50,255 nt of DNA from a phage. The DNA is taken from sequence record PV636259.1; one strand, given 5' to 3'. Shown one piece after another: positions 5,472-50,255 of this stretch (position 1 is the first letter of the stretch; each line of letters begins with the position of its first letter). The notes under the pieces are model-generated. The model worked only from the letters and a program-made list of their open reading frames with translations. It was not told the DNA's origin and did not search any database. A program made the position numbers and the translations under genes.

Positions 5472-5490
5472 TTTTAGCAAAACGTGCTAT
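5472..5490 (-). promoter_or_regulatory. Operator/promoter motif copy (minus orientation; ATAGCACGTTTTGCTAAAA)
   Basis: Second copy in the control region, about 200 bp upstream of the first in the minus direction. Confidence 0.45.
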
Positions 5491-5893
5491 CGATTACACT
5501 TTAACTTGTCACGATTGTAATATTTGTCTAGAATCGCACTTGTGACAAAATTACGCACTGTGACGCCCCACAATAGACATATGGATATATGTATATATAT
5601 AATATATATAGTGTTTTTTTATTTATATATATAGATAATTATATTGTAATAGTTGTGTATAGCCGTCTTACATTGTCTAGCGTACTGTTGGCATATTTCT
5701 ATCTGCATGTTTATATATACAGTACTTTTTTGAGAGTCATATATTTCTATGTGTACTCTAGACAGCTAGACAAATGTTACACAGCTTAAAATTGGCTCGC
5801 AGGCATTGACGGCCCTGCATTGCGCTGTCACAATGGCAATTGTTGACATGTTATGACACCATTTACACATCAATAGACAAATGAGGATGGATT

Positions 5894-9518: not shown

Positions 9519-9667
9519 TGGCTGCATGGGTATTGATTATCTTGATGAGCACCGGGCCGGATCACGTATACATGGAAAGTCAGCAAGCATGTAACAAGGC
9601 TCGGGAAGTAATTGCAGAAAACAAGCCGTTCGGATATGAAGTAAAAACAATGTGCGTTAAAAGATAG
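9518..9667 (+). CDS. Possible small membrane protein (49 aa)
   Basis: Hand-found ORF MAAWVLIILMSTGPDHVYMES... with ATG overlapping the upstream stop (TAATG); its stop TAG starts the next motif. Below track cutoff. Confidence 0.35.
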   Translation: MAAWVLIILMSTGPDHVYMESQQACNKAREVIAENKPFGYEVKTMCVKR

Positions 9668-9683
9668 CACGAATTGCTAAACC
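9665..9683 (+). promoter_or_regulatory. Operator/promoter motif copy (TAGCACGAATTGCTAAACC); hairpin GGCCA...TGGCC encloses TGTTATAGT
   Basis: Read directly. Confidence 0.55.
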
Positions 9684-9774
9684 TTCCGCAAGGCCATTTG
9701 TTATAGTGGCCTTATTGAAGCACGGCAACCAACCAATCAGGCTGAATGCAGGATAATTTAATGAGGTTTTATCT

Positions 9775-11268: not shown

Positions 11269-11487
11269 ATGGCTACTATCATGACAGCGGAAGATGCAGC
11301 GCGTGAAGCAGTGGAAGGGATGCGCCCAAATACCTCCAGAATCGCACACTACTACAATTTTGACGTGTCGGCAGTGCAGCTGGTCCATGAAATTTTAAGG
11401 CTCCCACAAGTTGATTCAGTGCGCGTGGTGACGTGCTTAAAAAATTATTTTTGCATCACTATTAAAATGAATAGCACGAATTGCTAA
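11269..11487 (+). CDS. Hypothetical protein (72 aa); last five codons (N-S-T-N-C-stop) are encoded by the motif itself
   Basis: Track ORF; ...AATAGCACGAATTGCTAA read in frame. Confidence 0.5.
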   Translation: MATIMTAEDAAREAVEGMRPNTSRIAHYYNFDVSAVQLVHEILRLPQVDSVRVVTCLKNYFCITIKMNSTNC

Positions 11488-11490
11488 AAC
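11472..11490 (+). promoter_or_regulatory. Operator/promoter motif copy (TAGCACGAATTGCTAAAAC); hairpin GGGGAAT...ATTCCCC encloses GCTATGAT
   Basis: Read directly. Confidence 0.6.
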
Positions 11491-11544
11491 CTATCAAGGG
11501 GAATGCGCTATGATTCCCCTACACCAAAAAACGAGGGAACACTC

Positions 11545-11991: not shown

Positions 11992-12010
11992 TAGCACTAA
12001 TTGCTAAAAC
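11992..12010 (+). promoter_or_regulatory. Operator/promoter motif copy (TAGCACTAATTGCTAAAAC); hairpin AAGGGCA...TGCCCTT encloses GGTAGAAT
   Basis: Read directly; abuts the TAA stop of 11545..11991. Confidence 0.6.
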
Positions 12011-12073
12011 TTGCTCAAGGGCATTTGGTAGAATGCCCTTCGTTGAGTTAAGCAACCAATCAGAGGAATCACT

Positions 12074-12918: not shown

Positions 12919-13491
12919 ATGAAAACAGCTATCATTTTAAACGGCGCTCCTGGAGCAGGCAAGGACACTATCGGATGCATCCTGGCTGACACTTACGATC
13001 ATGTAGCTTTGCGCAGCTTCAAAGCACCAATGTTTGAGATTGCTCGGGCAATCCTGGGTGAGGCTAACTACGAGTATTTCATGTTCTTGTATGAGGATCG
13101 TCGTTACAAAGAAGAGCCAGCGTCAATCCTGAACGGTAAAAGCCCGCGCCAGTTTATGATCTGGATTAGCGAGGAAGTAATCAAGCCGCAGTTCGGAAAT
13201 CGCTTCTTCGGTATGCGAGCGGAAAGCAAGGTCAAAGAGTCATATTCTCTGTCAGTATTTACTGATGGTGGATTCAAAGATGAGGTATTGCAGATGATTG
13301 AAGGTGATATCCAGGTCAAGCTATGCCGAATCCACCGCAAGGGCGGCAACTTTGACAACGACAGTCGTGATTATATTTACCTGGAAGATATGATCGGGGT
13401 TAATGGTTATCAGGAGTGTGATTTCTTCTCTGTCGAAGGTCATCCAGAAATTACCGCTCAGCACATAGCCGCTACGTTCATCAACAAATAG
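12919..13491 (+). CDS. P-loop kinase (190 aa): polynucleotide-kinase-like or dNMP-kinase-like
   Basis: N-terminal Walker A LNGAPGAGKDT. GAPGAGK resembles polynucleotide kinase P-loops and SGKDT resembles phage dNMP kinases; adjacent to the HAD phosphatase. Confidence 0.55.
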   Translation: MKTAIILNGAPGAGKDTIGCILADTYDHVALRSFKAPMFEIARAILGEANYEYFMFLYEDRRYKEEPASILNGKSPRQFMIWISEEVIKPQFGNRFFGMRAESKVKESYSLSVFTDGGFKDEVLQMIEGDIQVKLCRIHRKGGNFDNDSRDYIYLEDMIGVNGYQECDFFSVEGHPEITAQHIAATFINK

Positions 13492-13507
13492 CACGAATTG
13501 CTAAAAC
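13489..13507 (+). promoter_or_regulatory. Operator/promoter motif copy (TAGCACGAATTGCTAAAAC) + TGATATAGT extended -10 + CTCATCGACAAC leader
   Basis: Read directly; TAG stop of the kinase gene embedded. Confidence 0.6.
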
Positions 13508-13563
13508 GTCGGTGGGGTGATTTGATATAGTTACCTCATCGACAACAAAGAGAGAAAATCGAA

Positions 13564-15319: not shown

Positions 15320-15337
15320 TAGCACTAAATGTTAAAC
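15320..15337 (+). promoter_or_regulatory. Operator/promoter motif copy (variant TAGCACTAAATGTTAAAC) immediately upstream of terS
   Basis: Read directly; no hairpin between it and the terS RBS. Confidence 0.45.
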
Positions 15338-22026: not shown

Positions 22027-22045
22027 TTTAACAAAAAGTGCTATT
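22027..22045 (-). promoter_or_regulatory. Operator motif copy in reverse orientation (AATAGCACTTTTTGTTAAA) inside the late structural operon
   Basis: Read as reverse complement of TTTAACAAAAAGTGCTATT; lies between the decoration gene and a terminator. Confidence 0.5.
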
Positions 22046-25791: not shown

Positions 25792-25811
25792 TTTTAACAA
25801 AAAGTGCTATT
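25792..25811 (-). promoter_or_regulatory. Operator motif copy in reverse orientation (AATAGCACTTTTTGTTAAAA) directly upstream of the chaperone RBS
   Basis: Read as reverse complement of TTTTAACAAAAAGTGCTATT; followed on the plus strand by ACCAATCAGGAG and ATG. Confidence 0.5.
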
Positions 25812-25831: not shown

Positions 25832-26149
25832 ATGGCTAAATTCAATTTCGTGTTGGGCCAGCTTCCAGACTTCAAACTTCCGGTGACGTTCACCATGCCA
25901 AACGGCGAGGATGCAACTATTATTTTTACAGTGCGCCACCTTTCCAGTAAAGAAGTGCAAGATATGTATGCGAAGCAGGGCGAAATGAATGATAGCGATT
26001 TCATCACTAAGATCGCGTCAGGCTGGAATCTGGAAGAAGAATTTAACGAAGAGAATACGCGTAAACTGGTACAGTATTATCCTTCCGCAGCGTACAACCT
26101 GACGGCAACTTACATCAAGGCGCTTGCCGGACACCGCGCAAAAAACTAA
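25832..26149 (+). CDS. Tail assembly chaperone (G-like, 105 aa)
   Basis: Position immediately upstream of the tape measure; ends ...GCA AAA AAC TAA at a slippery heptamer. Confidence 0.7.
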   Translation: MAKFNFVLGQLPDFKLPVTFTMPNGEDATIIFTVRHLSSKEVQDMYAKQGEMNDSDFITKIASGWNLEEEFNEENTRKLVQYYPSAAYNLTATYIKALAGHRAKN

Positions 26150-29813: not shown

Positions 29814-30596
29814 ATGAGCGAAAACAAAAAACTTTATGATGAAGAAAGCGGGAAGAGCCTGTTTCACAACTGCCTTCAATCACTATACCCTGGAGAGATA
29901 ATCACCCTTATTGAAGTTGATGGTAGCAAGTTCGGCGCTCAGGTGTATCGATTCCACGGAGAGAACATCCAGTACACTCCAGAGGAAATCATGCAGGCCC
30001 AGCAAACTGGAACGCTGCCGCCGAAAGAAATTACATTCCGTGGGGAGCAATATGGAGCGCGCCCGTTCGGCATATCCGGGATCTCATTTGATAGTTCCGG
30101 AAAGGCAACAAAACCACAGTTGACGGTGGCGAACATTGATAGCAGAGTATCTGCAATGATTCGATCATATAACGGATTGATGCAAGCTAAGGTGACAATC
30201 TGGATCACTCAAAAGGACTTAATTCAACCTGACGGCTCAATAGCTGACGGAGCTTACCGCAAACTGGTATACTATATCGAACGCCCGAGCTATGTCGATA
30301 AGAGCGTCGCCCGATTCGATCTCACGTCGCCGTATGATATGGATGGCATCATGATCCCGTCTCGACTAACGCAAAGCGTTTGCTATTGGGCGCAGCGGGG
30401 ATGGTATAAAACCGGGAAAGGCTGCGGATACAACGGGCAAAACGGTTATTTTGACAAAGACAATAATCCGGTAGACGATCCTGCTTTGGATTTCTGCCCA
30501 GGTACGGTAACGGCCTGCCGCCTGCGATTCGGCGCAAACAATGAACTGGATTTTGGCGGCTGCGCGGTTGCTTCACTACAGAGGAAAAATCAATGA
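29814..30596 (+). CDS. Minor tail protein (lambda L-like, 260 aa)
   Basis: Track ORF trimmed to the ATG after AGAGGAAAAG; position in the M-L-K-I-J order. Confidence 0.6.
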   Translation: MSENKKLYDEESGKSLFHNCLQSLYPGEIITLIEVDGSKFGAQVYRFHGENIQYTPEEIMQAQQTGTLPPKEITFRGEQYGARPFGISGISFDSSGKATKPQLTVANIDSRVSAMIRSYNGLMQAKVTIWITQKDLIQPDGSIADGAYRKLVYYIERPSYVDKSVARFDLTSPYDMDGIMIPSRLTQSVCYWAQRGWYKTGKGCGYNGQNGYFDKDNNPVDDPALDFCPGTVTACRLRFGANNELDFGGCAVASLQRKNQ

Positions 30597-31952: not shown

Positions 31953-32000
31953 CGCCTGTATAATGAGTCCACCAATAAATAGCACAAAAAGGTAAACATC

Positions 32001-35482: not shown

Positions 35483-36443
35483 ACATGTTTGGAGTGAAAG
35501 GAATTGGCATTGAAATGTTTATATTGAAGGGAAATTGAGCGCCGCTCTGAGTAGAATAGTTACCCACCCTTGTTCCGGGTGCGCTTCTCACGTTACCGCC
35601 GCTCATGCAAACTCCCTTGTATCGAATGTTATTATATCCACCCGTAACTCTGCATATCGTACCTGTTCTCAGTATTGGGAAAAATCCACCGCACCACTGC
35701 CAACCATCATTTATCGCCATAGTCCCGCCAAGAACGAATGGGCGTCTAACGCTTGAGAAAACGATCTGACCAGCAGGGTTACTCATAGTTATTCCTAGCC
35801 CAGGAGGTGGTGGAGTGTTATTAAATATTACGAGTTGCACGTATACGCTAGCGCCAACGTCATCAATCCCGTTATAGTTTGCATCCCTGCACCATATTGT
35901 ATTGCCGTCAGATTCAAGTGTTACGTTTGGATTATCCCACATACCGAAAGGAACGCCCTGTACTGGCAACTGAGCCTGACCGTTAACCTGAATCCCCCCA
36001 ACAAATGCAGCGCTCATCAATCTGGCGTTATTCGGTATAGCTGCGAAGTTCGTTGAATCGTTAACAAGTATCCCCTGATTTCCAGCTTGAGCGGGGAGGA
36101 TTTCGTAGCAGTTTCCATAAAATCTCATCCTCCTTCCACCGTGCCCGTTAAAATTACCTACCGTTATTCGTCCGGTTGAATCATTTACCTTCTGAAAACT
36201 AGTCAAATAATACACCTCCGGGATGTAATCCATATCGTCTATGTAGATAGCCTGAGATGGAAGGCAAAAAGCAGTAGACCCTGGACTCATTTGCAAACCA
36301 AAATCAAACACCGATCCAGATGAATCAACCCCGTCAGCCTGTATGGGTCCGCACCATGACGGTGCGCGAAGACCCGAAGTTATCTCCATTGCCGGGCGAC
36401 CGTCGTTTAGGTTTATATATATTCCTTGTCCCATAATTACCAC
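35478..36443 (-). CDS. Putative receptor-binding protein (321 aa)
   Basis: Gly/Asn-rich beta-type composition; encoded with a Cor-like lipoprotein gene, opposite to the tail operon. Positional inference. Confidence 0.5.
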   Translation of the reverse strand: MVIMGQGIYINLNDGRPAMEITSGLRAPSWCGPIQADGVDSSGSVFDFGLQMSPGSTAFCLPSQAIYIDDMDYIPEVYYLTSFQKVNDSTGRITVGNFNGHGGRRMRFYGNCYEILPAQAGNQGILVNDSTNFAAIPNNARLMSAAFVGGIQVNGQAQLPVQGVPFGMWDNPNVTLESDGNTIWCRDANYNGIDDVGASVYVQLVIFNNTPPPPGLGITMSNPAGQIVFSSVRRPFVLGGTMAINDGWQWCGGFFPILRTGTICRVTGGYNNIRYKGVCMSGGNVRSAPGTRVGNYSTQSGAQFPFNINISMPIPFTPNMY

Positions 36444-36667: not shown

Positions 36668-37193
36668 TCGTGTGTCCTCGTCTTTAGTGTGATTGCATTG
36701 TATGTCGCATTTACTTTTATTGCAATAGTTCGATTACAATTTTTTCGTGTAACAGGTGTCTATTTTTGTAACCGGGAGGTGTGTTACAAAATCGACCTCA
36801 TTCGACCGCAGGGAGATATGATAAAAACTCTATATAATATATATAGATAGATAATATTTAATTTTAGCTTTATATATATAATTATTGTTGTGTAACAGTT
36901 GTATATCGTGTAACAGGTGATTTGATTGATTCGTCAAATTTCTATCATATTTGTTCAAAATATAATCAATCTTGATTCTATTCATGGATATCTGTGTATT
37001 TCTAAGAAAAAGCGGTTACAAGTATTACGAAATAGACACCACATAAAAACAGGATTAAGCCATTGATTCTGTTGATGCTGATTGTAACTTGAGCGATATA
37101 GACACGCTATTACACACCAATTACATGTATCCGATTGACTAAACGCTGTTAATGGCTATAATGGATTCATCGTAAACGAAGGAGATAAGCGCA
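36668..37193. promoter_or_regulatory. Second AT-rich divergent control region (upstream of cor/receptor-binding genes leftward and the recombination operon rightward)
   Basis: No ORFs; GTGTAACAG repeats at 36746..36758, 36889..36898 and 36907..36919 plus inverted TGTTACAC at 36781..36788; 16-bp TATATAATATATATAG (36831..36846) identical to 5596..5611. Confidence 0.6.
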
Positions 37194-38258: not shown

Positions 38259-38332
38259 ACGGCACAAATAGCTAAACAAATAATTAATGAGGTGTTATAA
38301 TGCACCTCATACACCAATCAGGAGAAGTTAAT

Positions 38333-41342: not shown

Positions 41343-41360
41343 TAGCACGAATTGCTAAAC
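41343..41360 (+). promoter_or_regulatory. Operator motif copy (TAGCACGAATTGCTAAAC) in plus orientation between two minus-strand genes
   Basis: Read directly; orientation opposite to the flanking genes. Confidence 0.5.
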
Positions 41361-42357: not shown

Positions 42358-42370
42358 TTCCAGATCTCCA

Positions 42371-42415
42371 AAATAAAAAACGCGTAGAAGGATGTTAACC
42401 CGCTACGCGTCGTTT
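42371..42415. terminator. Hairpin ACGCGTAG...CTACGCGT flanked by A-run and T-rich tail (bidirectional terminator-like)
   Basis: Read directly between the HTH gene and primase. Confidence 0.5.
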
Positions 42416-42416
42416 G

Positions 42417-42436
42417 TTTTAACTAAAAATGCTATT
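42417..42436 (-). promoter_or_regulatory. Operator motif copy (minus orientation; AATAGCATTTTTAGTTAAAAC) forming the last six codons of the HTH gene
   Basis: N-S-I-F-S-stop is encoded by AATAGCATTTTTAGTTAA. Confidence 0.5.
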
Positions 42437-42871
42437 GGTCGTTCCGATATCTTCCTTCTTCACGACGCGCATAAATTTCTTGTTCTTGCATCGCTTCTCA
42501 AGGCACTTGCCGTTACCGTCAAACTTCAGGTCGAATCGCAACCATGCGGCACGAAATCCTTTGCACCCCTGTCGGCGGTAAGCGCGATGCGCAGCTTCAG
42601 CGCCTTGCCATGAAATCATATTTCGATCTTTCCAGCCTTGCACCGTCTGATTGCTAACTTTTAGAGCCTTTGCGCAGGCCGCAGGGCCGCCGTAATATTC
42701 GATAAGAGCATCAAGTCGCGCTCGCAGTCCGGCGCGTGTTTCTTCTTTATGAATATAGAACCCGCAACGCTGTCGAGGCTTTTTATCTTTACCGCGCCGT
42801 GTTCCGTTGTTACCATTGATGTGACGTTTATCGATTTCACCAGTTGACTCTGCGATACGTTGAATACTCAT
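42419..42871 (-). CDS. Putative DNA-binding protein with helix-turn-helix segment (150 aa)
   Basis: AKALKVSNQTVQGWKDRNMISWQGAEAA resembles Cro/CI-type HTH; basic N-terminus. Confidence 0.5.
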   Translation of the reverse strand: MSIQRIAESTGEIDKRHINGNNGTRRGKDKKPRQRCGFYIHKEETRAGLRARLDALIEYYGGPAACAKALKVSNQTVQGWKDRNMISWQGAEAAHRAYRRQGCKGFRAAWLRFDLKFDGNGKCLEKRCKNKKFMRVVKKEDIGTTNSIFS

Positions 42872-42884
42872 CTTGATTCTCCTA

Positions 42885-42904
42885 TAGCACTTTTTGCTAA
42901 AAAC
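42885..42904 (+). promoter_or_regulatory. Operator/promoter motif copy (TAGCACTTTTTGCTAAAAAC) upstream of the helicase
   Basis: Read directly in the 93-bp divergent gap. Confidence 0.55.
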
Positions 42905-42964
42905 GTTTACTTTATGCCGTGTATTATAGCGTAAACGTTACAACGATTCAAAGGATTAATAGCC

Positions 42965-44983
42965 GTGACAATAAACATTAAAAAACAGATTGCATTACTT
43001 GGCGAGGACTACATAAAGCGAACTCAGGAGCGATTTACTGTTGGTGAGGTTGTTCCTTATCCGTACCAGGTTGTTGCTTATGCCGAGATCGCGAAACGCC
43101 TGTCAAATTACGAGCATCCATTCTTTGTTAAAGCGTCAGTATCTGCTGGTAAGACCATCATTTTTGCTATGGTTGCAAAGCAGTGTCAGAAAATGGGCTT
43201 AAAAATGCTCGTTCTGGCTCGCCAGGGTGAGATTGTCGATCAGGATAGCGAGGAGATTGACAACTTCGGGGTAACTAACTCCATATTCTCAGCCTCATTA
43301 GGTATTAAGTCCTGCTACTTCCCGATCGTGGTTGGCTCTGAGGGTACGGTTGCAAATGGCCTCGACAATGAGTTAGCTGATTTCGTCCCGCATGTAATTG
43401 GGATCGACGAATGTCACCAGGTGGATTGGGAAGACCTTGCGCAAGCCATTGAGGGCAAGGAAACAATGGAACAAATGAGGGGCGAGAAGGGGAAAATCAT
43501 CATGGACGGAGATATTCCTCTGATTGGTAATGATGGAAAACCTATTCTTGGAACCAAGCGAAGCCAGTACACGATCGTAATCATGGAGATGATGCGTCGC
43601 TGTAAAGAGGTTCACGGGCATGATCTCAGAATTTTTGGAATGACGGGGTCTGAATTTCGCGGCGTTGTTCCGATTCTTGTTGAGAATCCAAAGGCGTTAG
43701 GATTCTGGCGTGAGCGCGTTACTGATATCGACACTAATTATCTTATTGAGTTTGGCTCTGTCGTTCCGACGATATTCGGCTCAACAGACGGAGTTCACTA
43801 CGATCTTGATAAGTTCAAGGCGTCTAGCGAGGACGGCGTACAGGACTTTACAGAGAAAGATATGAAGGCAATGGAAGATGAGATACTTCATGATAAATCT
43901 CTGACTCAGCGAATCATGCAAATGGTCGCAAAAAAGGCCGAAGAGCGTAACGCGGTACTGATTACATGCGCAGGGGTGCGTCACTGCAAAGAGGCGGCGG
44001 CGGCGCTTCCACCAGGAAGCACCTATGCAATCATCACTGGCGACACAGACACCAAAACGCGCAAGAAAATCTTGGACGATGTGAGGGCTGGGAAAATTAA
44101 ATACACCTTTCAGGTAATGGCGCTCACTACTGGCGTTAATGTTCCAAATTGGGATTTCAGTGTCATACTCCGCAAGATAGGCTCGCTCACTCTGTTGATT
44201 CAACTTTTGGGTAGGGGTATGCGACTGCTTAAATCCTGGCAGGTTGCTGAAGGAATGGTTAAGCAGGACCATCTGGTATGGGATTTTGCAGGTACGATGG
44301 ATGAGTTGGGCCAGCTTTATTTCGATCCGATACTTGAGCAGGCGCAATTCCAAAAGCGTTTTGAAAATGGCAAAGATCCGAAAAAATGTCCGAAATGCGG
44401 TTGCGTAAATAGCTTCTATGCTCGACGATGCGTTAATGTCATTGATGGTGAACGTTGCGATCATTTCTGGACTTCTCAGATTTGTGAGGACCAGGTTGAC
44501 GAGCGCACCGGTAAAATCCTTGTTAAAGGATGCGGTGCAGAGAATGACGTTGTGGCCCGAGTCTGTCGTTGTTGTGATGTCTCACTTGTCGATCCGAACC
44601 TGAAGTTGTCCGGTAAGGCGTACACTAAGAATGACTGGTACGAGGTAAAGAATTTTGAAGTTACGCTAACCAAAAACCAGAAAGGCATAATATACAAATA
44701 CACGCTGATTAACGACGATGGTGATGAGTTCAAGGCGTATGAAAAATTCTTCCCCGAGTCTGACTCTAAGATTTGCGGTACGCTATGGAAAACTAAAGGT
44801 GTACTTCCTCATGTGTCAGATCCTAAAATGCGTCGCTACTTTATCGGAATGAAGAACGCCATCAAGATCGTGCAGTACGCACATCATATCGCTCACCCGG
44901 TACGCGTAACTCATCGTCGCAACCAGAAGAAAGAAGATATTATCTCACGTAAAGACTTCGGTATGGAGGATATCCCGGAATGA
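42965..44983 (+). CDS. Superfamily-2 DNA helicase with C-terminal zinc-finger region (672 aa); GTG start
   Basis: Walker A SAGKTIIFAM, DEAH-like GIDECHQV, C-terminal KKCPKCGC...CRCCDVS Cys clusters. Confidence 0.75.
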   Translation: MTINIKKQIALLGEDYIKRTQERFTVGEVVPYPYQVVAYAEIAKRLSNYEHPFFVKASVSAGKTIIFAMVAKQCQKMGLKMLVLARQGEIVDQDSEEIDNFGVTNSIFSASLGIKSCYFPIVVGSEGTVANGLDNELADFVPHVIGIDECHQVDWEDLAQAIEGKETMEQMRGEKGKIIMDGDIPLIGNDGKPILGTKRSQYTIVIMEMMRRCKEVHGHDLRIFGMTGSEFRGVVPILVENPKALGFWRERVTDIDTNYLIEFGSVVPTIFGSTDGVHYDLDKFKASSEDGVQDFTEKDMKAMEDEILHDKSLTQRIMQMVAKKAEERNAVLITCAGVRHCKEAAAALPPGSTYAIITGDTDTKTRKKILDDVRAGKIKYTFQVMALTTGVNVPNWDFSVILRKIGSLTLLIQLLGRGMRLLKSWQVAEGMVKQDHLVWDFAGTMDELGQLYFDPILEQAQFQKRFENGKDPKKCPKCGCVNSFYARRCVNVIDGERCDHFWTSQICEDQVDERTGKILVKGCGAENDVVARVCRCCDVSLVDPNLKLSGKAYTKNDWYEVKNFEVTLTKNQKGIIYKYTLINDDGDEFKAYEKFFPESDSKICGTLWKTKGVLPHVSDPKMRRYFIGMKNAIKIVQYAHHIAHPVRVTHRRNQKKEDIISRKDFGMEDIPE

Positions 44984-49996: not shown

Positions 49997-50255
49997 TCAA
50001 ATTCTTCTTTCGTAAGCTGGAGCCTTGCGCACAATTCGACGTTCCGATCTATCAATGTTTCTACGTTCGCCAAACAAATCCTCATCACTCATCTCTCCAA
50101 TGTGCATCATTTCCCACGTATACCGATTGTTGTAGCCATCAATACACATCAGCTTCATCATTACCGGGCGCTTAATCTTTCCCTTGCACCAGTAAAACCC
50201 ATCCCTGCAATCAAGATAACTCTCAGTTACACAGCGTGAGCAAAACTCCTTAGAT
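49997..50255 (-). CDS. 3' part of the junction-spanning Cys-rich ORF (same gene as 1..276; 50129..50255 duplicates 1..127)
   Basis: Hand translation ...CIDGYNNRYTWEMMHIGEMSDEDLFGERRNIDRSERRIVRKAPAYERRI-stop, with the stop at 49997..49999 on the minus strand. Confidence 0.4.
   Translation of the reverse strand, partial: SKEFCSRCVTESYLDCRDGFYWCKGKIKRPVMMKLMCIDGYNNRYTWEMMHIGEMSDEDLFGERRNIDRSERRIVRKAPAYERRI
50129..50255. repeat. Terminal duplication: identical to 1..127
   Basis: Read directly. Confidence 0.9.

Follow-up and report, generated by a model that had tools for sequence, protein, structure and literature searches.

The pir Gene of a T1-Like Phage Is Flanked by Oriented Repeats That Probably Act as Marbox-Like Promoter Elements Rather Than as Pir Operators

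Results

The pir Locus

The DNA analyzed here (the window, i.e., the whole stretch of 50,255 nt in sequence record PV636259.1) is a complete genome of a T1-like phage (Tunavirus, Drexlerviridae). The 4-kb stretch around the gene under study, pir, is 93–95% identical to phages JMPW1, T1 and their relatives, and the 127 nt at positions 1–127 recur exactly at 50129–50255, inside the Orf10 gene, a duplication that is probably the assembly overlap of a circularly permuted, headful-packaged genome. The pir gene lies on the minus strand between the primase gene and a divergent helicase gene, in the primase-pir-helicase order of T1, and KP36 and Motto are arranged alike. The features of the locus are collected in Table 1. 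A preliminary description had reported the divergent arrangement, which we can confirm, with the helicase gene starting at a GTG at 42965, and a 150-aa minus-strand protein, which stands as an ORF with an ATG start at 42419..42871, although the boundary of 42417 given for it is 2 nt off. The operator copies that it had placed at the 3′-end of pir and upstream of the helicase gene are also genuine as copies of a repeat: the latter contains the exact palindrome at 42885–42899, and the former, taken with its flanks on the minus strand, scores 22.9 bits against a shuffle maximum of 15.5, using a PWM built without that copy.

Table 1. Features of the pir locus, with positions in the window.
Feature	Position	Strand	Basis
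Rho-independent terminator hairpin after pir (ACGCGTAG…CTACGCGT, then T run)	42370..42420	-	Inverted repeat
-10 hexamer TAACAT of the primase promoter (predicted), 22 nt after the repeat, in the pir terminator loop	42392..42397	-	5.5 bits; hairpin z -4.4
Marbox-like repeat ATAGCATTTTTAGTTAAAAC, over pir codons 146–150 and stop, toward the primase gene	42416..42435	-	PWM, 1 mismatch to GCAHWWWWTGYYAAA
pir gene (T1 Orf23/Pir orthologue by sequence), Cro-like HTH regulator, 150 aa	42419..42871	-	ORF list, tblastn, phrog_2856
Helix-turn-helix segment, residues 61–84 (GGPAACAKALKVSNQTVQGWKDRN); recognition helix residues 74–83	42620..42691	-	
N-terminal basic arm, residues 7–35 (STGEIDKRxINGNNGTRRGKDKKPRxR), predicted disordered	42767..42853	-	Alignment and pLDDT
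Marbox-like repeat ATAGCACTTTTTGCTAAAAA, putative class II element for the helicase promoter; inverted in the pir 5′UTR, 13 nt upstream of the ATG	42884..42903	+	Exact match
Inverted repeat AACGTTTACTTTAT / ATAGCGTAAACGTT flanking both overlapping -10s	42902..42939	.	Repeat search; weak candidate Pir operator
-10 hexamer TATTAT of the helicase promoter (predicted), overlaps the opposite-strand pir -10	42922..42927	+	Offset 22, 6.7 bits
pir promoter TTGAAT, 17 nt, TATAAT; close to the sigma-70 consensus, without an upstream marbox	42923..42951	-	Promoter scan, 10/12 matches

Pir Is a Cro-Type Protein With an Invariant Arm

Sequence comparison identifies the product of the gene as an orthologue of T1 Pir (Orf23), a protein that was already known. 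The two proteins are equal in length and 98.7% identical over 150 aa (tblastn), the match to phrog_2856 ‘transcriptional regulator’ has an E value of 2e-76, and the pir gene is annotated as a transcriptional regulator in the T1 GenBank record as well. A published T1 pir sgRNA (TAGAACCCGCAACGCTGGCG) fits the window at about 42755–42774 with 1 mismatch, and homologues of Pir are found in 825 phage records, essentially all of them from Drexlerviridae.

The Cro/CI-like helix-turn-helix (HTH) that had been proposed for this protein is borne out, as a Cro-like one, by an AlphaFold2 model and by a sub-threshold Pfam match. The model, a monomer built on 18 homologues, is confident for residues 36–140, places the HTH at residues 63–70 and 74–83, and has an all-alpha HTH fold that can be superimposed on solved Cro structures, with a small beta pair (residues 38–41 with 134–137) contributed by a C-terminal extension. 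The Pfam match is to P22_Cro (PF14549) on residues 55–82 (E 5e-5) and reaches 23.3 bits, below the gathering cut-off of 30.2; precomputed PF14549/PF15943 matches are present in several Pir homologues. The most conserved part of Pir is the N-terminal arm, in which 12 columns of the alignment are invariant across clades (G11, D14, R16, N19, G20, N21, N22, G23, R26, G27, D29, and R33), and for residues 1–26 the pLDDT is below 50. An arm that is both invariant and disordered suggests folding on an invariant partner, e.g., RNA polymerase, a host activator or DNA. As modeled, this regulator consists of a single Cro-type HTH domain and, ahead of it, a basic N-terminal arm that is invariant and disordered.

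The Repeat Is Oriented and Asymmetric

The palindrome TAGCA-N5-TGCTA occurs in 9 exact copies in the window against 0.05 expected, the copy upstream of the helicase gene included. It lies within a longer repeat with about 25 genomic copies, whose consensus, aATAGCACnnnTTGyTAAAAc, is asymmetric and oriented with transcription. When 25 copies are aligned in this orientation, A0, A16, and A17 are 92–100% conserved and lack counterparts across the dyad, the likewise conserved C6 and T10 are never complementary, and position 13 is either C or T. The complementarity of paired positions amounts to 4% for 0/16, 16% for -1/17, 0% for 6/10 and 56% for 3/13, only four positions per half-site are dyad-related, and the dyad does not extend over the whole footprint. 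The conserved repeat is not a dyad operator.

A 21-nt direct repeat, aaATAGCACnnnTTGnTAAAA, is known from TLS, T1, Rtp, and Rogue1 (German, Misra, Kropinski et al., 2024, PMC11447400), where its function was left open; in TLS its copies run with transcription at about 76 nt before the start codons, and the options listed are stoperators, enhancer sites or UP elements, with no binding protein named. By its sequence, the repeat of the window is this Drexlerviridae repeat (the ‘DR’ of TLS): its copies have the consensus aaATAGCACnnnTTGnTAAAA, are intergenic and follow the direction of transcription. Seven genomes from four clades share one and the same consensus, the compared phages including KP36 (Webervirus), A134 (Tempevirinae), and 26046I (Braunvirinae). 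We also observe three classes of the central triplet, namely GAA (e.g., 9665, 11472, 13489, and 41343), TTT (e.g., 42885, 45394, 6680, and 8378), and TAA (11992, 46417, 48405, and 15320), and comparable groups (AAA, TTT, and GAA) are described for TLS (PMC11447400).

A -10 Hexamer at a Fixed Distance Makes the Repeat Part of a Promoter Module

The best -10-like hexamer lies exactly 22 nt after the 15-mer in 19 of the 26 repeat copies, and at this offset a hexamer of at least 4 bits is found in 17 of the 26, against 1.4% of random positions. These hexamers (e.g., TATAGT, TATTAT, and TACAAT) are often preceded by TGn, and the complete module reads aATAGCAC-nnn-TTGyTAAAAc, 18 nt, TAnnnT, about 6 nt, and then a conserved leader, CATCGAAAC, which is followed by a Shine-Dalgarno sequence and the start codon. 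Repeat and -10 hexamer together form promoter modules that have no suitably spaced -35 hexamer. Their transcription start sites are predicted from the -10 hexamers, and our search of the literature found no transcriptome or start-site data for any Drexlerviridae phage.

Two other assignments of these elements were considered and rejected. TTGCTA as a -35 hexamer would have a spacer of 22 nt to the -10, not 16–18 nt, and a sigma-54 promoter, whose TGGCAC-N5-TTGC resembles the repeat, was rejected by inspection on account of AG instead of GG, the N3 spacing and the sigma-70-type -10 downstream.

Some further observations concern the same regions. A stable hairpin is present in the stretch from the spacer to the -10 in 16 of the 21 modules that were folded (z < -2, mean z -3.3; examples among the 21 are 9665–9720, 11472–11530, 11992–12050, 13489–13545, and 38260–38315); the stem sequences vary and the -10 is found either in the loop or immediately 3′ of the stem, which indicates that the terminator-like or 3′-end hairpin of the upstream gene is interleaved with the promoter of the next gene. 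A set of ‘orphan’ repeats, at 15320–15334(+), 22029–22043(-), 25795–25809(-), 31980–31994(+), and 41343–41357(+), lies directly 5′ of the Shine-Dalgarno sequences of genes with a late or structural role, namely terS, the major capsid gene, the gene at 25832, tail fibre J, and tail fibre 41321; several of these repeats run opposite to the gene and have no -10 at a suitable position, and they could be roadblocks or antisense promoters. Near-consensus sigma-70 promoters without the repeat are PrecE (TTGACT-16-TATAAT, window 37100–37193, corresponding to T1 30319–30377), Ppir, and a candidate, TTGTCA-17-TAGAAT, in the divergent region at about 5.5 kb (5490–5590), and these are candidates for immediate-early promoters.

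The Two Copies Flanking pir

At the 3′-end of pir, the 15-mer TAACTAAAAATGCTA (42420–42434) has 2 mismatches to the symmetric palindrome, and at 2 mismatches the palindrome has 42 matches against 21 expected, so that the symmetric pattern alone is weak. The repeat covers the codons for N-S-I-F-S, the TAA stop and 3 further nt, and the final residues of Pir, in its disordered C-terminal tail, are set by it. We read this copy as a promoter element of the primase gene and not as an autoregulatory site, since it points away from pir toward the primase gene and has a -10 hexamer 22 nt downstream. The equivalent of the pir terminator is annotated at 35930..35969 in T1. An alternative sigma-70-like primase promoter, TTAACA-17-TATTTT at 42370–42398(-), also lies in the terminator and overlaps TAACAT. 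The site at the pir/primase junction has the same register in T1 and A134, with the TAA stop being T14-A15-A16 of the repeat and, in A134, with the site lying over the last four codons; in KP36 the TAG stop of pir is the TAG of aTAGCAC, in 26046I the site lies 11 nt after the stop, in A110b the copy is degenerate and Motto has no copy. Among the other clades, the register of T1 is kept only in A134.

The upstream copy lies at about +13 to +32 of the pir transcript, as counted from the predicted start. The layout of the pir/helicase region, including this repeat, is kept in 7/7 genomes, and equivalent -35/-10 pairs for pir are found in other clades. The inverted repeat that flanks the two -10 hexamers is neither enriched elsewhere in the window nor conserved in other clades.

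Pir Does Not Track the Repeat

T1 Orf23 was named Pir, for ‘prophage induction regulator’ (Laganenka et al., 2019, PMC6737242). In that study, with plasmid-borne Pir and GFP reporters, Phol and Pdam were activated, Pir’s own promoter Ppir and PrecE were repressed, and Porf65 was independent of Pir; Orf65, a second T1 regulator, represses Ppir and activates itself, and no Pir binding site is reported (PMC6737242). We find that the T1 reporter fragments for Pdam and Porf65 carry the module, that the Ppir fragment has an inverted copy in its leader and that those for Phol and PrecE have none. Set against this distribution, the effects of Pir (dam up, orf65 unchanged, pir down, hol up, recE down) do not follow the repeat: Porf65 has a perfect copy and is yet reported to be Pir-independent, whereas Phol and PrecE respond to Pir without a copy. 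No 8–11-mer is shared among the four Pir-responsive T1 fragments. Furthermore, residues 73–82 of Pir, in the recognition helix, contain no invariant residue across clades that share the identical repeat, as illustrated by SNQTVQGWKD in T1 and CCVRLTNAYR in the Vc1/Motto clade.

The preliminary description had put Pir forward as the factor that recognizes TAGCA-N5-TGCTA. This is not supported: the site is asymmetric, the targets of Pir do not track it, the recognition helix differs between clades that share one motif, and the copy at the 3′-end of the gene is read as a primase promoter, from which we infer that Pir does not bind the repeat. The autoregulation suggested along with it holds in so far as T1 Pir represses its own promoter (PMC6737242), the 3′-end copy not being the site through which this occurs.

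Other candidates for a Pir operator were tried and rejected. The palindrome at the pir and helicase -10s (GTAAACGTTTAC) has 2 matches against 1.7 expected, its A134 equivalent (GCCATTTGGC) has 3 against 4.6 expected, and the hexamer AACGTT, at 27 against about 12 expected, does not cluster at promoters; no Pir operator could be proposed with confidence from the palindromes, k-mers or hexamer counts tried.

The Repeat Resembles the Marbox in Sequence and Register

An older 20-mer form of the marbox, reportedly that of Martin and co-workers from 1999, is AYnGCACnnWnnRYYAAAYn; with this consensus and at most one mismatch, there are 22 matches in the window against 1.0 expected. The consensus GCAHWWWWTGYYAAA for MarA, SoxS, and Rob, taken from PMC6900184, has 23 matches with at most one mismatch in the window, where 1.4 would be expected, and 10 of these are exact. 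The enrichment recurs elsewhere, with 22 matches in T1, 16 in KP36, 18 in A134 against 2.2 expected, 16 in 26046I against 1.7 and 19 in Motto against 2.4.

MarA, SoxS, and Rob are activators of the AraC family that bind the marbox as a monomer. The cryo-EM complex of Rob on the class II promoter micF shows contacts with the non-template bases -47G and -45A and a B site overlapping the -35 element (PMC9178005), the micF soxbox is centered at -41.5 (PMC9638938), and forward-orientation sites at -36 to -55 are defined as class II (PMC12052159). Counted upstream from the first base of the -10 in the phage modules, the G of GCAC lies at 35 nt and the A at 33 nt, which corresponds to -47 and -45, and with the -10 at -12 to -7 GCAC occupies -47 to -44 relative to the predicted start sites, which is the class II register. 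As the marbox consensus holds about 22 bits and is matched in the right orientation and the right register, a chance match is very unlikely. Judging from the sequence, the repeat is likely to be a class II marbox-like promoter element and a site for the host activators MarA, SoxS or Rob. We found no paper linking MarA, SoxS or Rob to T1-type promoters, and this reading of the Drexlerviridae repeat appears to be unpublished.

A separate observation is that records MG065663.1, MG065688.1, and ON843697.1, labeled ‘Campylobacter phage’ (UNVERIFIED) or ‘Pseudomonas phage Motto’, are ordinary Drexlerviridae with 44–45% GC and a full set of marbox-type promoters, and their host assignments are doubtful enough to be checked again.

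Discussion

The explanation that accounts best for the locus as a whole, and to which we assign a probability of roughly 0.6, is that the gene encodes the orthologue of T1 Pir and that the repeats around it are marbox promoters for host activators and not operators for Pir, with the identity of the gene, the fold of the protein, the statistics of the repeat and the geometry and conservation of the modules being shown here and the effects of Pir and the consensus and register of the marbox being drawn from the literature. Pir would be transcribed from its own sigma-70 promoter (TTGAAT-17-TATAAT), and a host activator (Rob, MarA or SoxS, and RamA in Klebsiella) could bind each repeat as a monomer, replace the missing -35 contact and recruit E-sigma70 to the -10. 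In this way, the copy at the 3′-end of pir would drive the primase gene, with its -10 in the loop of the pir terminator, and the upstream copy would drive the helicase gene. As the -10s of pir and helicase overlap, we infer that occupancy of the upstream marbox favors transcription of the helicase gene at the expense of pir.

Some points speak against the marbox reading. Two of the three reporters that carry a marbox, Pdam and Ppir, respond to Pir, and the repeat is kept in Motto, which is reported on Pseudomonas aeruginosa; the Pir clade of Motto contains the Vibrio phage Vc1, along with Citrobacter and Salmonella phages. We know of no MarA, SoxS or Rob orthologue in the Pseudomonas and Vibrio hosts of Motto and Vc1. 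Counterpoints are the 45% GC content of Motto and the Citrobacter and Salmonella phages in its Pir clade. Uninduced Rob is largely inactive, and the levels of MarA and SoxS are low in the absence of stress. In the paper on a Keio screen with LL5, a T1-like phage, there is no mention of rob, marA or soxS; however, three redundant activators would mask single deletions.

A phage-encoded reader would better explain the presence of the repeat in phages reported on Pseudomonas and Vibrio. In such a case, a phage protein of an unrelated fold would act as a MarA-like class II activator, and Orf10 and Orf7, which both lie beside the ATPase Orf9, are candidates; each of the six comparison genomes has kept Orf7, Orf9, and Orf10, and Orf10 is modeled as a generic winged helix. 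The most economical candidate would be monomeric Pir, reading the repeat with its invariant arm and HTH. Against this, the genes for Orf7, Orf9, and Orf10 are themselves downstream of repeat promoters (1907 and 2407) and their products could not start the cascade, the repeat-bearing T1 reporters were assayed in E. coli free of phage (PMC6737242), and coincidence or mimicry would be needed to explain the exact marbox register. We also detected no AraC-like or two-HTH protein: among 730 stop-to-stop ORFs, the best phmmer E value with MarA and SoxS as queries was 1.8, and a Pfam search of Orf65, Orf10, Orf7, and others gave nothing. Orf65 was rejected as a universal reader of the repeat, being absent from KP36, A134, 26046I, and A110b (4 of the 6 comparison genomes). 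We regard reading of the repeats by a phage protein of unrelated fold, whether one of these or Pir as a monomer, as unlikely. If it did occur, it would be a case of convergent mimicry of both the site of a host activator and its class II geometry, it would supply about 25 host-independent promoters, and it would account for the retention of the motif by T1-like phages whose reported hosts are Pseudomonas and Vibrio.

Binding of TAGCA-N5-TGCTA by a Pir homodimer through its Cro-like HTH, with activation from about -42 and repression of pir from the copy in the 5′UTR, would agree with Pir being a Cro-type HTH protein, with half-sites 10 bp apart that suit a dimer, and with the behavior of Pdam (repeat at -42, activated) and Ppir (repeat in the 5′UTR, repressed). 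Pir and the repeat co-occur in 7/7 genomes, including Motto, and a marbox-free pir promoter of sigma-70 consensus type is what one would expect of an early master regulator. Such a dimer would have to read an element that is oriented with transcription, has its dyad at 4 positions per half-site only and leaves A0, C6, T10, A16, and A17 without partners, and it accounts neither for the Pir-independence of Porf65 and the response of Phol and PrecE nor for a recognition helix without an invariant residue across clades with an identical motif. The match of about 22 bits to the marbox, in class II register, would moreover be a coincidence, and we consider the Pir dimer quite improbable as the reader.

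A very small chance is left for the repeat being read by no protein other than RNA polymerase itself, as an intrinsic UP-like element that is contacted by alpha-CTD and boosts extended -10 promoters. This is among the options of the TLS authors (PMC11447400), and the A-rich flanks (aA…TAAAA) and the TGn before the -10 in many modules would fit it, but the invariant positions contain G and C (GCAC and TG), unlike the A/T tracts of UP elements, and the site covers -50 to -31, where class II activators sit. That the repeats are stoperator-like repressor or roadblock sites that silence transcription, as in mycobacteriophage L5, was suggested in the TLS paper as well (PMC11447400) and would suit the copies at 15320, 41343, 22029, and 25795 and in the pir 5′UTR, which have no -10 partner and sit immediately in front of a Shine-Dalgarno sequence, but 19 of the 26 copies precede genes and have a -10 at a fixed 22 nt, which is the signature of promoters, and T1 is essentially lytic with no identified immunity repressor, making this the least credible of the alternatives.

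As the Pir protein is already known, finding its gene adds little in itself, and the weight of the analysis lies on the repeat, whose function is explicitly an open question for T1-like phages in the TLS paper of 2024. If the repeats are marbox promoters for host activators, then Drexlerviridae, a large family that is in clinical use and includes the weberviruses of Klebsiella, have most of their early and middle promoters wired to host MarA, SoxS, Rob or RamA. These activators are induced by antibiotics, salicylate, oxidative stress, and bile salts, and they drive efflux-mediated multidrug resistance. Phage gene expression would then be linked to antibiotic stress, with synergy or antagonism between phage and antibiotics as the prediction, and the genome would offer about 25 natural near-consensus marbox promoters for synthetic biology.

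Compared with T1 Pir, the protein described here has the same position and length and the same promoter and 5′UTR sequence, and no functional difference can be distinguished. Compared with the all-alpha Cro proteins (Xfaso1, N15, and P22 Cro) and the N-terminal domains of the P22 c2 and 434 repressors, Pir, with its 150 aa, has in addition the invariant 35-aa basic arm and the C-terminal extension. The repeat of the window and that of TLS share consensus, orientation, the distance of about 76 nt to the start codon and central-triplet sub-classes, and what our analysis adds to the TLS paper (PMC11447400) is the match to the marbox and the fixed spacing to the -10. With class II promoters of E. 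coli such as micF, the phage modules share the same asymmetric 20-bp consensus, with a GCAC A-site and a YAAA B-site, the forward orientation, G-47 and A-45, and the overlap with the -35 region. Sites of the micF type are bound by monomeric MarA, SoxS or Rob, for which the phage repeats are candidate sites. The phage elements differ from those of E. coli in the additional conservation of T1, A2, and T10-T11 and in having the -10 in or beside a hairpin, and while chromosomal marboxes are degenerate, the phage carries about 25 near-consensus marboxes in 50 kb.
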